Positions 5,642-50,431 of a stretch of 64,000 nucleotides of DNA are shown piece after piece. Position 1 is the stretch's first letter. Each line of letters opens with the position of its first letter. The notes under the pieces were generated by a model that ran no database searches, was not told the DNA's origin, and saw only the letters and a program-made list of their open reading frames with translations. This DNA is from Spirochaetia bacterium. GTDB taxonomy: Bacteria > Spirochaetota > Spirochaetia > SP-2023. The DNA lies in assembly GCA_965225855.1 (NCBI GenBank), contig CBDDCK010000005.1:1344001-1408000 (forward strand). Reading direction: 5' to 3'. The translations under genes were made by a program, and so were the position numbers.

Positions 5642-7441
5642 CTATTTATTAACATTAACAAAAATCTGACTTGTTAAGTCTGCTGGACTACCAGTTGCAA
5701 ATCCTGCTGCTGCTTTAAGGTTGTATGCACCATTATTATCATTAAAACCAGACTTAACCAGTATAGCATTAGCTTTCGCTTTTACACTACCGCTGAAAGT
5801 AATATATAAGCTTGTTGCACTTGCACGAGAACCTGTGGCTTTGTTTGCACCTTCGGTTGCGTGCTGGGGTAATGTGTATTTCTTCTTACCATCACCGGAT
5901 ACAATCGTCAATTTGCTAAAGTCCCAGTCTGGAACTGCTGTCGGTAAATTCTTACCAGAAATAATTAACAAGCCTCTCCTAGCTATGTAGTTTACTAATT
6001 CGATCTTGCTTACATACCCACTAACGGTAATCGGGTTATTGCTTGTGTCTGCTGGACTACTAGTTACAAATCCTGCTGCTGCTTCAAGGTTGTATGCACC
6101 AGCATCATCACTTTTACCATTCTTAACCAGTATAGCCTCGACTTTGGTTTTTTCAGTACCCTTTAAAGTAATCGTTAAGCTTGTTGCACTTGCTGCAGAA
6201 CCTCTGGCAAAGTTTACAGTTGACAATGGTTGGTGCTTTAATAATGGGGCACTCTTAGTAGTACCATCACCTGCGACAAACCTCAATTTGTTGAAGTCCC
6301 AGCCCCACACTGATTTTGGTAAATTAATACCTGTAATCACTAACACGCCTGTAATACCTGTGACAACACGGTAGGTTGCACTGGTGATTGCGGGTGGGTT
6401 TCCACTAACGGCCAAGGCTTTGGCTGTATTTAAACCCGCCCAAGCACCAGAGCTAGTAAGCAACCCATCTTTTAGACCATTGGTATTCATACCTGTCTTG
6501 CCATTCAGAGTAGCTTTATGTTGATCGGTAAGTCTAAGCCAAAGCGCTGTGCCATCTCTTTTCATACGGTACTTACCTTTTGCAAGACCACGACTATTTA
6601 GCCCAGTGGCTGTGGCATCTGCAATATAGGAACTTAAGGCTACCCCATCTACTACGATGGTTTGGATTTGCGCTTGGGTCGCACTACCTAAGTGAGTACC
6701 TTGTACAGTTAGCAGAGCCGTGCCAACATTGTAGCTTGCACCGGTAATTGCGGCTTTAGGCGACTCCTCTTCAGCTTGTTCGACTTTAGGTTGCTTAGGC
6801 GACTCTTCTTCAGCTTGTTCGTCTTTAGGTTGCTTAGGCGACTCTTCTTCGGCTTGTTCGACTTGTTCGTCTTTAGGTTGCTTAGGCGACTCTTCTTCAG
6901 CTTGTTCGACTTCTTCAGCTTCTTCAGTTTGCTTAGATGGCTGATTGTCATCGGATACTTTAGACTGCTTATTTTCGGGTATATTCCTAACTTCCAAGTC
7001 TTTGGCTGTATCTAAACCCGCCCAAGCACCAGTGCTAGTAAGCAACCCTTTTTTTAGACCATTGCTACCCATACCTGTCTTGCCATTCAGAGTAGCTTTA
7101 TGTTGATCGGTAAGTCTAAGCCAAAGCGCTGTGCCATCGCTTTTAATACGGTACTTACCTTGTTCAAGACCGTTACTATTTACCCCAGTGGCTGGGTAAT
7201 CTGCAGTATAGGAATCTAAGGCTACGCCATCTACTACGATGGTTTGGATTTGCGCTTCTGTAGGACTTAAGTTCGTGCCTTGTACAGTTAACAGCGCCTT
7301 GCCAACATCGTACATGGCGTTCTTGATAGTCGGCCCAGACGGCCCAGAAGACGGCGCATCGTCATCGGGTGGGGCGCAGGCCAAGGCCATAAAGGCCAGT
7401 AGCAATGCTACAGGCAATAAAAGTAGTTTGAGCTTATACAT
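5642..7441 (-). CDS. Modular variable surface lipoprotein, copy 1 (A-acidic stalk-A-B-B)
   Basis: GGAGG RBS then MYKLKLLLLPVALLLAFMALA-C lipobox; internal repeats; paralogous to 9003-11165, 41406-43244 and 48067-50431. Confidence 0.85.
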   Translation of the reverse strand: MYKLKLLLLPVALLLAFMALACAPPDDDAPSSGPSGPTIKNAMYDVGKALLTVQGTNLSPTEAQIQTIVVDGVALDSYTADYPATGVNSNGLEQGKYRIKSDGTALWLRLTDQHKATLNGKTGMGSNGLKKGLLTSTGAWAGLDTAKDLEVRNIPENKQSKVSDDNQPSKQTEEAEEVEQAEEESPKQPKDEQVEQAEEESPKQPKDEQAEEESPKQPKVEQAEEESPKAAITGASYNVGTALLTVQGTHLGSATQAQIQTIVVDGVALSSYIADATATGLNSRGLAKGKYRMKRDGTALWLRLTDQHKATLNGKTGMNTNGLKDGLLTSSGAWAGLNTAKALAVSGNPPAITSATYRVVTGITGVLVITGINLPKSVWGWDFNKLRFVAGDGTTKSAPLLKHQPLSTVNFARGSAASATSLTITLKGTEKTKVEAILVKNGKSDDAGAYNLEAAAGFVTSSPADTSNNPITVSGYVSKIELVNYIARRGLLIISGKNLPTAVPDWDFSKLTIVSGDGKKKYTLPQHATEGANKATGSRASATSLYITFSGSVKAKANAILVKSGFNDNNGAYNLKAAAGFATGSPADLTSQIFVNVNK

Positions 7442-7504
7442 AAGCAATACCTCCAACAATGGATAAAGATTGGCCAACCCATACGGGCTAGTCTGTAAAT
7501 CCCC

Positions 7505-7531
7505 ATTTTGCTAGGGGGGGTGTTGCGTCAA
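7505..7531 (-). promoter_or_regulatory. Promoter-like element of lipoprotein copy 1 with C7 tract
   Basis: TTGACG-caaca-C7-tag-CAAAAT (15-nt spacer); the element is conserved upstream of all four copies. Confidence 0.55.
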
Positions 7532-7659
7532 GGCCTTTATAAGGCTTTTTGTAAGTTTTTTTGTGTTAGGGTACTTTAGCTTGGGCTATATGGGCTTCTG
7601 GGTATTTAGCTGGGGCTCTTCAAGCAAACAACTTTGGCTATACAGTGTTGATCGGGTTT

Positions 7660-47729: not shown

Positions 47730-47867
47730 AGCAATTAAAGCTCTAAGCTATAGGAAATGAAACTTTTCCTTGCTATTTTCTGTTAAAGAATAAGTCGCTT
47801 ATTTTGATGTTGGAAGCTCTATGCCTAAAATTTTTGGTAAAAAGTCAACGCAACAGTTTGGTTGTTC

Positions 47868-47960
47868 CAGCCTTGATAAAAAAATTTACCAAGGCTATAA
47901 TTGGTAAAAGCAGCCTTGATAAAAAACTTACCAAGGCTTGGCCAAAGTTTATCTTGTTAA
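47868..47960 (-). repeat. Family-specific downstream hairpin repeats after copy 4
   Basis: CAGCCTTGATAAAAAAATTTACCAAGGCTATAATTGGTAAAAGCAGCCTTGATAAAAAACTTACCAAGGC; the following TTGGCCAAAGTTTATCTTGTTA also occurs inverted near 11363-11384. Confidence 0.85.
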
Positions 47961-48066
47961 AAAAAAGCCAACCAAGCATTGCTTGCAGCATTTACTTGGT
48001 TGGCCGCCCACTAGCTTTCATTTAGCTGCTCTAAGAGCTATTGGGCAAGCGCAGTCAAACTAAAAA

Positions 48067-50431
48067 TTATTCAATGATAATATAATTATTTTTTGTGTCT
48101 GCTGGACTACCCATTACAAATCCTGCTGCTGCTTCAAGGTTGTGAAGACCAACCTTAACCAGTATCTTATCGGCTTCCGCTTTTACACTACCGCTTAAAG
48201 TAATCGTTAAGCTTGTTGTACTTGCCGAACCTGTGGCTGTGTTTTCACCTATTGCGTGCCGGGGTAATGTGTATTTCTTCTTACCATCACCGGATACAAG
48301 CGTCAATTTGCTAAAGTCCCAGCTATCCAATGTTGTCGGTAACTTGCTACCATTAATTACTAACACGCCTGTACGAGGATTGTAGGTTGAGTGTTTGATC
48401 TGGCTTACATACCCACTAACGGTAATAGGATTGGTTGTGTCTTCTGCCCTACCACCTGCAAATCCTGCTGCTGCTTCCAGATTGTATGCACCAGCATCAT
48501 CACTATCACCATTAGTAACCAGTATATCATAGGCTTTATTGTATTCAGTACCCTTTAAAGTAATCGTTAAGCTTGTTGCACTTGCTGCAGAACCTGTGGC
48601 ACTGTTTATACCGGTTGGTTGGTGCCAGAATAATGGTTGACTCTTACGACCATCACCTGCAACAAACCTCAATTTGGTGAAGTCCCAGCCATCCACTGTT
48701 GACGGTAAATTGACACCTGTAATCACTAACACGCCTGTAGCAACATTGTAGGTTGCACTGGTAATTGCGGGTGCGTTACTATTAACAACGGCCAAGCCTT
48801 TGGCTGTATCTAAACCTGCCCAAGTGCCAGTGCCAACGCTAAGCAACCCATCTTTTAGACCATCGCTATCCATACCGTCCTTGCCATTCAGAGTAGCTTT
48901 ATCGGTATCGGTAAGGTAAAGCCAAAGCGCTGTGCCAGCGCTATGCAGGCGGTACTTACCTTTTGCAAGACCGCGACTATCTGACCCAGTGGCTGTGGCA
49001 TCTGCAATATAGGAACTTAAGGCTAAGCCAGCTACCGTGATAGTTTGGATTTGCGCTTGGGTCGCAGTTGTAGGACTTAAGTTAGAACCTTGTACAGTTA
49101 ACAGCGCCGTGCCAACATGGTAGCTTGCACCGGTAATTGCAGCTTCGGGGTTTCCACTAACGGCCAAGGCTTTGGCTGTATCTAAACCCGCCCAAGTACC
49201 AGTGCCAACGCTAAGCAACCCATCTTTTAGACCATTGGTATTCATACCGTCCTTGCCATTCAGAGTAGCTTTATGTTGATCGGTAAGTACCGCGACTATC
49301 TGGCCCAGTGGCTGTGGCATCTGCAATATAGGAACTTAAGGCTAGGCCATCTACCACGATGGTTTGGATTTGGGCTTGGGTCGCACTACCTAAGTCAGTA
49401 CCTTGTACAGTTAACAGCGCCGTGCCAACATGGTAGGTTGCACCGGTAATTGCGGCTTTAGGCGACTCCTCTTCAGCTTGTTCGACTTGTTCGTCTTTAG
49501 GTTGCTTAGGCGACTCCTCTTCAGCTTGTTCGACTTGTTCGTCTTTAGGTTGCTTAGGCGACTCCTCTTCAGCTTGTTCGACTTGTTCGTCTTTAGGTTG
49601 CTTAGGCGACTCCTCTTCAGCTTGTTCGACTTGTTCGTCTTTAGGTTGCTTAGGCGACTCCTCTTCAGCTTGTTCGACTTGTTCGTCTTTAGGTTGCTTA
49701 GGCGACTCCTCTTCAGCTTGTTCGACTTGTTCGTCTTTAGGTTGCTTAGGCGACTCCTCTTCAGCTTGTTCGACTTGTTCGTCTTTAGGTTGCTTAGGCG
49801 ACTCCTCTTCAGCTTGTTCGACTTGTTCGTCTTTAGGTTGCTTAGGCGACTCCTCTTCAGCTTGTTCGACTTGTTTGTCTTTAGGTTGCTTAGGCGATTG
49901 ATCATCGACTTCTTCGGTTTGTTCGGCTTCGGGTAACTTAGGCGACTCTTCTTCGGTTTCGGTCTGCTTATCGGGTATATTGCTAACGGTTAAGTCTTTG
50001 GCTGTATCTAAACCCGCCCAAGCACCAGAGCTAGTAAGCAACCCTTTTTTTAGACCATTGCTACCCACCTTGGCCTCAAGAGCAGCTTTATGTTCATCTT
50101 TAAGTTTCAGCCAAAGCTTTGTGCCATCGGTTGCAATACGGTACTTACCTTTTGCAAGATCGCTACTATCTGGCCCAGTGGCTGGGTCATCTGCAATATA
50201 GGAACTTAAGGCTAAGCCAGCTACCCTGATAGTTTGGATTTGCGCTTGGGTCGCACTGGTAGGACTTAAGTTAGAACCTTGTACGGTTAGCAGCGCCGTG
50301 CCAAAGTCGTACATGGCGTTATTGATAGTCGGCCCAGAAGATCGATCATCGTCATCGGGTGGTGCGCAGGCCAAGGCCATAAAGGCCAGTAGCCAGGCTA
50401 CAGGCAATAAAAGTAGTTTGAGCTTATACAT
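48067..50431 (-). pseudogene. Modular variable surface lipoprotein, copy 4 (A-9x stalk-A*-A-B-B), frameshifted
   Basis: Split over ORFs 49271-50431 and 48067-49326; 53 nt are missing at ~49288 relative to the equivalent A domain of copy 2. Confidence 0.85.
49458..49889 (-). repeat. 9 x 48-bp tandem repeat encoding QPKDEQVEQAEEESPK
   Basis: TTAGGCGACTCCTCTTCAGCTTGTTCGACTTGTTCGTCTTTAGGTTGC; eight identical units and one with a single substitution. Confidence 0.97.

Follow-up and report, generated by a model that had tools for sequence, protein, structure and literature searches.

A dispersed family of about 105 modular lipoprotein genes with poly-C promoters in an uncultured spirochaete, a candidate variable surface coat

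The stretch of DNA analysed here (hereafter, the window) comprises 64,000 nucleotides (nt) from the metagenome-derived genome of a Spirochaetia bacterium (assembly GCA_965225855.1; 2,712,625 bases in 5 contigs, 94% complete) and spans positions 1344001-1408000 of contig CBDDCK010000005.1 (C5). It contains four paralogous genes, g1 to g4, each combining a leader and lipobox with two kinds of repeated module (A and B) and an acidic repeat stalk. A preliminary description of the window had reported four such paralogs, regarded them as a four-member family and proposed them as a candidate antigenic-variation system. All four genes are where they had been placed, and the leader pattern MYKLKL..LP.A.LLAFMA.AC-APPDDD occurs in 4/4. 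Module calling with phmmer, using the five modules of g2, likewise returned the architectures that had been described: AsABB for g1, AsAABB for g2, AsABB for g3 and A-s-A / ABB for the broken copy g4, where s denotes the stalk. The family is far from four-membered, as counting paralogs genome-wide yielded about 105 genes.

Three of the window genes are intact. On the minus strand, g1 (5642-7441) encodes 599 amino acids from its ATG in the order leader/lipobox-A-stalk-A-B-B, with A modules at 6983-7330 and 6392-6751, B modules at 6011-6391 and 5648-6010, and an acidic stalk of 39/48-nt tandem repeats at 6756-6927. Its predicted promoter (7505-7531) consists of a -35 box TTGACG (7531-7526), a run of seven cytosines (C7, 7520-7514) and a -10 box CAAAAT (7510-7505) with a spacer of 15 nt, and a Shine-Dalgarno sequence GGAGG lies at 7454. 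The plus-strand gene g2 (9003-11165; 720 amino acids, A-stalk-A-A-B-B) has A modules at 9105-9464, 9717-10073 and 10074-10439, B modules at 10440-10805 and 10806-11162, and a stalk at 9481-9712 in which a 48-nt unit, encoding 16 amino acids rich in E/Q/A/P/K, is repeated 4.8 times. Its predicted promoter (8902-8928) follows the same plan, with TTGACG at 8902-8907, C7 at 8913-8919, CAAAAT at 8923-8928 and a 15-nt spacer; GGAGG is found at 8990, and a terminator-like hairpin with a T run (11176-11204, plus strand), kept behind many family copies, follows the gene. The third intact gene, g3 (41406-43244, minus strand; 612 amino acids, A-stalk-A-B-B), has its modules at 42771-43142 (A), 42144-42500 (A), 41775-42143 (B) and 41418-41774 (B), its stalk at 42519-42766, and a predicted promoter at 43309-43334 with six cytosines (C6, 43323-43318) and a 14-nt spacer.

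The fourth gene, g4 (48067-50431, minus strand), is a broken copy, as had been noted, consisting of two open reading frames (ORFs; 49271-50431 and 48067-49326) that encode A-stalk-A and A-B-B, respectively. What breaks the gene is an internal deletion that takes out part of its second A module, together with a frameshift near 49271-49326, where '...DSRG' is joined directly to '...LTDQHK'. A homopolymer error as the cause was rejected, the break site not lying at a homopolymer. The stalk of g4 (49458-49954) contains 10.4 copies of 48 nt, and its predicted promoter (50495-50520) has C6 at 50509-50504 and a spacer of 14 nt. Across the window genes the 48-nt tandem repeat thus varies from 2.1 to 10.4 copies, and each promoter holds a poly-C tract (C7, C7, C6 and C6 in g1 to g4), so that both the size-variable acidic stalk and the promoter homopolymer of the preliminary description are borne out.

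With g2 as query, 304 stretches of the whole genome matched, and a six-frame census identified 115 ORFs containing A or B modules. The leader is borne by 105 genes (386-1279 amino acids; the front half of g4 and one gene cut by a contig end are included), which together account for 215,157 nt or 7.9% of the genome. When the genome was scanned for the conserved motif of the untranslated region (UTR), two more members came to light, both intact and with an MYKLKP leader, along with three short remnants; the tally thus stands at about 105 intact genes, against about 6 copies that are broken or reduced to remnants. Among the architectures AsABB (34) is the most frequent, followed by AsABBB (20), AsBBB (16), AsAABB (12) and AsAAABB (8), and the family holds 251 A and 258 B modules in total. 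Its genes stand singly and on both strands; contig C5 carries 81 of them at a median spacing of 16.3 kb. Four outlier members (C5:353640-357599, C5:571721-574798, C5:206269-209289 and C4:210671-211939) have MNKH/MNKY or other leaders, long mixed A/B architectures with an ORF of up to 1320 amino acids, and a canonical TTGACA-N17-TAAATT promoter; these may be older relatives of the expanded family.

Copy numbers of this order, together with the mosaic coding sequences described below, could be produced by repeat mis-assembly in a metagenome bin; the genome is metagenome-derived, in 5 contigs and 94% complete, and short-read contigs shatter within the family. We nevertheless regard such an artefact as very improbable. 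Every copy has a unique housekeeping context, and contigs of public runs from two independent studies cover the family tens to about 100 times as deeply as its unique flanks, so that the copy number does not stem from assembly. Other public assemblies also contain members with this leader, only 76-86% identical to the best copy here; repertoires therefore differ between strains.

The N-terminus of the family proteins has two lysines, a hydrophobic core and, in 103/105 copies, a Cys at position 22. The leader consensus, MYKLKLFLLPVALLLAFMALAC followed by APP with the cleavage mark before APP, comprises a short basic N-region and a lipobox ending in Cys; the spirochaetal lipobox rule is looser than the general one. 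From this sequence pattern the proteins are predicted to be lipoproteins, that is, lipidated substrates of signal peptidase II. Behind the first module the stalk ranges from 0 to 179 amino acids across the family (median 65).

Structure prediction with AlphaFold2 for the A-B-B part of g2 (10074-11162), using a 70-sequence alignment, gave three beta-rich domains, each with one short helix, at a mean predicted local distance difference test (pLDDT) of 89.6. According to this model A and B are immunoglobulin (Ig)-like beta-sandwiches, a generic cell-surface fold from which function does not follow. Foldseek matched it to chains of Ig-like domains, namely titin, plexin IPT, the Chlamydomonas flagellar coat protein FMG-1B, the GhpA neck and Bacteroides SGBP-B. 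The top VIA-align match was the S-layer protein SbsC (Z 8.2 over 92 residues, borderline by the tool's notes), followed by EA1, SGBPs and adhesin extender repeats at Z 5-6.7. When the profiles of A and B were compared with one another, only the first 23 columns aligned, with a probability of 32%.

The preliminary description had not recognised the protein family, and searches of the window proteins against Pfam, NCBIfam and PDB sequences returned nothing usable, the fold prediction being what assigned them Ig-like domains. Against Pfam there was only a sub-threshold or stretch-less CrtC match; SWM_repeat (PF13753) was not listed by hmmscan at E up to 1, and one language-model neighbour cluster carries PF13753 (score 0.91). 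Sequence search with B-B matched 237 cluster representatives out of 1.84 billion (E 1e-30 to 6e-65), mostly proteins of 1500-5500 amino acids with 5-20 repeats at 31-40% identity, from Undibacterium, Nitrosomonas, Acidovorax and others, with names such as DUF4347, beta strand repeat-containing, DUF4214 and hemolysin-type calcium-binding. Judged by this similarity, B is homologous to the internal repeats of giant DUF4347/RTX-type, 'beta strand repeat-containing' surface proteins of Proteobacteria. Those are single proteins with DUF4347, RTX or DUF4214 parts, whereas the spirochaetal genes combine 2-4 B modules and a stalk with a lipid anchor and an A module restricted to this lineage, and encode proteins of 386-1279 amino acids that are not giant; a Pfam scan of the window proteins detected neither DUF4347 (PF14252) nor PF00353.

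The A module, in turn, appears almost confined to this lineage: all 91 matches among 5.8 billion proteins searched belong to this genome itself or to a few assemblies with the same leader, and an A-A query against 400 genomes of the class gave one marginal match. The genus of this uncultured spirochaete is sparsely sampled, and in a scan of genome contigs with FlhA the best named relative was a 'Spirochaetales bacterium' metagenome-assembled genome at 56% identity. Neither the genus's three other species nor 37 further relatives yielded the family, and synteny with three congeners was not recovered, the flanking proteins being 25-39% identical or not found. A few metagenome lipoproteins with a different leader (P0074, P0082, P0086 and P0094) combine B-like and A-like modules. 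Six distant relatives gave nothing usable against Pfam, P0074 as a query against public genome contigs yielded no confirmed locus, and a 24-nt UTR/start pattern had 0 matches in metagenome contigs. In the open-access literature searched, we found no report of the family.

Ahead of their coding sequences, nearly all copies have one and the same 5' cassette of 200 nt. About 90 nt upstream of the ATG, 102/105 copies carry TTGAC(G/T)-N5-Cn-N3-CA(A/C)AAT, whose -35 and -10 boxes were assigned by register with homologous canonical promoters. The UTR and leader of two small lipoprotein genes (C5:1104103 and C5:1106192) are homologous to those of the family, and their promoters read TTGACC-N16-TATAAT in the same register; two of the long outlier members have TTGACA-N17-TAAATT with a run of five cytosines within the spacer; and genome-wide, TTGACN-N(s)-TANAAT peaks at s=16 (23 occurrences against a background of about 9), in a set that includes promoters directly before tRNA genes. 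Taken together, these comparisons place the -35 and -10 boxes of the family. On this placement the family promoter falls below the local consensus twice, in its short spacer and in a -10 box that starts with C rather than T. A C7 tract gives a spacer of 15 nt and a C6 tract one of 14 nt, and one more C on C7 restores 16 nt. The small lipoprotein pair (C5:1104010-1106640), of 217 and 147 amino acids, has the leader MHKHNIFFLPIALLLSFLVLFSC and its own KDQLEDQ-type repeat stalk.

Once both extra members are counted, 84 copies have C7 and 18 have C6, with C8 in one (C5:1508714) and C9 in one (C5:800631). When promoters were grouped into haplotypes that are identical from the -35 box to the ATG except for the tract, 9/57 haplotypes occurred with more than one tract length among paralogs. 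The C6 promoter of g3, for example, is otherwise identical to the C8 promoter at C5:1508714, and the C7 promoter of g1 is otherwise identical to those of two C6 copies. Comparison of paralogs thus points to the poly-C tract as the mutable spot of the cassette. G/C runs of at least 7 number 139 in the genome, and 85 of these lie in family promoters. Searches of the intergenic and promoter region against Rfam gave 0 matches, and the 5' UTR folds as RNA no better than its shuffles (z -0.31).

Coding sequences, by comparison, are mosaics, as had been described for the window, and genome-wide they are pieced together from exact tracts that they have in common with different paralogs. Mosaicism was screened by exact-match tracts, a BLAST approach with a 99.5% filter having under-counted. 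Exact tracts common to different genes reach 1644 nt, with tracts of at least 200 nt in 81 pairs and of at least 300 nt in 43 pairs; the 81 pairs have a median overall identity of 0.82, and in every one of them the shared tract is longer than any run obtained in 50 column permutations. Tracts of at least 120 nt with at least two partners are found in 84/105 genes and make up 33% of the family length. Within the window, g1 and g2 have none of these shared tracts, g3 has two and g4 has many. The gene at C4:90278 is 100% identical to C5:241844 over its first ~600 nt, and its later segments are 100% identical to C5:1590283 and then to C5:38723; elsewhere it is 48-92% identical to these partners. 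Such a pattern is the mark of segmental gene conversion and not what simple duplication would leave.

Segmental gene conversion makes mosaic surface proteins in the vls/vmp systems of Borrelia and in TprK as well, where one expression site is rewritten from silent cassettes. The evident segmental exchange between copies here would suit a system of that kind, in which a single expression site is renewed from silent, promoterless copies. Anatomy speaks strongly against it: to judge from the sequences, every copy is expression-ready, with a full promoter, ribosome-binding site and leader in 102/105 copies, and there is neither a class of silent cassettes nor a cassette array, with only about 6 fragments. 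Given that nearly all copies are full-length, with promoters and terminators of their own, and lie one by one across the genome with a median of 16 kb between them, we exclude a vls-type cassette system and give this arrangement scarcely any credence; a Borrelia vls/vmp or TprK style does not suit the family.

To gauge selection, we computed Nei-Gojobori proportions of nonsynonymous (pN) and synonymous (pS) differences over 4000 module pairs. For A modules pN was 0.158 and pS 0.179 (pN/pS 0.88), and for B modules 0.249 and 0.183 (pN/pS 1.36), compared with pN/pS of 0.15-0.75 in 16 paralog pairs outside the family run with the same code; these are raw proportions, gene conversion undermines tree-based tests, and pS could be depressed by selection acting on DNA identity. 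At 60-66% amino-acid identity, pS was 0.46-0.72 in the controls and 0.18 in the family. The control set originally held 19 pairs, three of which were removed as a CRISPR-like array read as protein; the CRISPR-like arrays lie at C5:663550-668367, and one frame reads as the peptide VAVAYLFSFRFN every ~22 residues. Conserved and variable columns follow one another in alternation along the predicted strands, the pattern to be expected where exposed faces vary while residues in the interior are preserved. Both segmental exchange and an excess of amino-acid change are predicted by a variation system.

The flanks of the genes are conserved as well, as had been seen in the window. On the 5' side, 84-96% of copy pairs resemble one another as far as about -200, beyond which the similarity declines, and the 3' flank is conserved over 100-250 nt in modular variants that include the terminator hairpin. 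Conserved ends of about 200 nt and 100-250 nt around copies that stand singly between housekeeping operons are what a selfish duplicative cassette might leave behind, one of promoter, gene and terminator that spread by recombination or some unknown mobility with little benefit to the cell. A short inverted match linking the 5' and 3' flanks, a 23/46-nt array upstream of 24 copies and the absence of the family from the 3 congeners searched could be taken the same way. We think this explanation improbable all the same. The copies are not accompanied by a transposase or reverse transcriptase, searches of the genome turned up only two tyrosine recombinases and nothing matching RVT_1, and the retention of ORFs in about 95% of copies, combined with amino-acid change in excess, indicates selection on the proteins. 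The missing RVT_1 match, in a genome that is 94% complete, also speaks against the genes being targets of a diversity-generating retroelement.

The inverted match itself, of 14-15 nt, pairs the 3' flank (TTGGTAAGTTTTTT, in the terminator) with the 5' flank (AAAAAAACTTACAAA) at 5358-5372 / 7548-7562 around g1, and one of the same type lies at 41352-41365 / 43350-43363 around g3; it is of low complexity and could be due to chance or mark cassette ends. The 23/46-nt tandem repeat array of the window is at 8108-8227, between g1 and g2, with a unit of approximately ATAGAATCGACCCAAATCTATCA and an internal dyad. Of 26 such arrays genome-wide, 24 sit 344-711 nt upstream of a family gene, and they may be regulator binding arrays or part of a longer cassette.

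We propose, with belief about evenly balanced for and against, that the family constitutes a contingency-type variable surface coat encoded by some 105 dispersed, full-length genes for lipoproteins with Ig-like modules. The proteins, as predicted from their sequence, would be lipid-anchored and displayed on the cell surface. Most promoters would have little or no activity (their spacers being 15 nt with C7 or 14 nt with C6, and their -10 box a sub-consensus CANAAT), and slippage to C8, which gives the 16-nt spacing of tRNA promoters, or to C9 would turn a copy up, such that each cell shows a small and changing subset of copies; this step is drawn from promoter geometry and the comparison of paralogs. 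Gene conversion, expansion and contraction of the stalk repeats, and diversifying selection would then keep renewing the repertoire, the pattern here being seen and the process being what we infer from it. Candidates for the selective agent are host immunity, phages or grazers, and that the variation is antigenic is likewise something we infer. The components on which the preliminary description had based its candidate antigenic-variation system (modular lipoproteins, conserved flanks, mosaic coding sequence, a variable stalk, a promoter homopolymer and a broken copy) are thus retained, without a cassette style of the Borrelia vls/vmp or TprK kind.

The principal alternative to a switching coat, which we consider possible though doubtful, is a set of constitutively co-expressed surface binding proteins (adhesins, glycan binders or an S-layer-like coat) in which the poly-C tract is fixed and has no switching role, and in which diversity serves many ligands or blunts phages. 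Fold matches that include S-layer proteins and Bacteroides surface glycan-binding lipoproteins suit such proteins, as does the intactness of ~105/~111 copies. Several observations on the tract count against the switching coat and on the side of co-expression. Tract spread is narrow, with 98% of copies at C6 or C7; MutS and MutL, the mismatch repair genes, are present; and 54 other C7/G7 runs exist in the genome, some of them inside genes including flhF (27309 and 28163), from which it follows that C7 runs are tolerated in coding genes and that C7 is not unstable enough to be purged. Contig pieces of public runs on the g2 promoter and on 4200-12200 are 36-70 nt long and end at or near the tract. 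In addition, some C6/C7 differences could be assembly consensus errors, an activator rather than spacer length could limit expression given the weak -10 box, the near-total intactness of copies would fit constant use of all of them, and immune evasion is only one possible driver.

Four considerations, conversely, tell against co-expression. The family promoter departs from its homologous canonical version in both spacer length and -10 box; in 9 haplotypes, promoters that match in all else differ in tract length; making over 100 proteins of ~70 kDa together, from 8% of the genome, would be costly; and a pN/pS above 1 across entire exposed faces is easier to reconcile with evasion than with ligand specialisation. 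A bolder form of the switching-coat proposal, which we hold only tentatively and judge rather unlikely, is that this would be the largest contingency family yet in a bacterium, with more than 100 expression-ready coat genes whose promoters stand one base short, slippage lighting up a random sparse subset in each cell and conversion reshuffling the Ig-like modules, a bacterial counterpart of var/VSG in an uncultured spirochaete lineage, made from a protein module that is nearly absent elsewhere.

Among known systems, the design of the family is best read, by analogy, as convergent with that of Mycoplasma Vlp and VlhA, that is, as a non-homologous and much larger variant of known phase-variable lipoprotein families; of the analogies that had been offered for the window, those to Mycoplasma prove closer in design, as opposed to the cassette style of Borrelia and TprK. 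In M. hyorhinis, promoter poly-A indels switch vlp transcription on and off and repeats within the genes vary their size (PMC10502178). The likeness lies in lipoprotein genes that each have their own conserved promoter and prolipoprotein leader, a promoter homopolymer and in-frame tandem repeats (PMC10502178). Vlp differs in being a handful of clustered genes, against ~105 dispersed ones here, in having poly-A instead of poly-C and short repeat peptides instead of chains of Ig-like domains, and in that switching has been demonstrated for Vlp and is proposed here. No Pfam, NCBIfam or PDB sequence match indicates homology to Vlp, and the relation is one of analogous design, not of membership.

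VlhA (pMGA) of M. gallisepticum is a large family controlled by upstream GAA repeats in which one gene is dominant, and it resembles the present one as a large full-length lipoprotein family with a repeat tract upstream of each copy, which in VlhA determines the copy that is expressed (PMC6258824). It differs in its GAA trinucleotides ~40 nt upstream, the lack of a sigma-70-type promoter, an organisation in 3-5 clusters, another protein family and a wall-less host. Within the spirochaetes, T. pallidum tp0126 has a poly-G tract between the -35 and -10 boxes, with best transcription at the optimal spacer and tracts of 7-11 that vary in vivo (PMC7864442); the poly-G promoters of that species (tp0126, tprE/G/J and tprL) share with ours a spirochaete host and a G/C homopolymer inside the promoter. 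The T. pallidum Tpr proteins differ in being beta-barrel outer-membrane proteins of a 12-member family, not lipoproteins and without homology, and here one promoter design has been copied ~100 times. The promoter-homopolymer anatomy of the Vlp, tp0126 and porA type is represented in this genome by C6-9 between -35 and -10 in 102/105 copies. Likeness to SbsC/EA1 and SGBP-B extends to Ig-like beta-sandwich beads on a surface protein, SGBPs being lipid-anchored too, and is at the level of fold only (Z 5-8.2, 11-17% identity, borderline by the tool's notes).

If the proposed switching coat is correct, a Mycoplasma-style design of slippery-tract promoter, lipoprotein leader and repeat stalk would have arisen independently in a spirochaete and been scaled to ~8% of its genome. 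It would also offer a natural system with ~100 parallel copies of one switch, which would allow mutation rate, spacer length and expression to be compared from one locus to the next. Even without switching, pN/pS of about 1 or more together with pervasive conversion would mark what enemies (immunity, phages or grazers) see on the surface. The analysis also defines two Ig-like surface modules that have no Pfam models, one of which links spirochaetal lipoproteins to giant repeat adhesins of Proteobacteria.

The neighbours of the family genes in the window are housekeeping operons (dihydroxyacetone kinase/TIM, sugar ATP-binding cassette (ABC) transporters, flagellar export, transketolase, Rnf and PGI). 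Adjoining the sugar ABC transporter genes, a plus-strand gene at 17822-19609 encodes a 595-amino-acid protein with a lipoprotein-like N-terminus, SEKLSSKD repeats and a Vps62 domain (PF06101). The flhF gene (26766-28691, minus strand) has a long low-complexity N-terminal extension and contains the two C7/G7 runs at 27309 and 28163. Finally, the cumulative GC skew of contig C5 (2.03 Mb) is lowest at 10 kb and peaks at 1.99 Mb, a shape that a single replichore, or replication starting at one end of the contig, would give.

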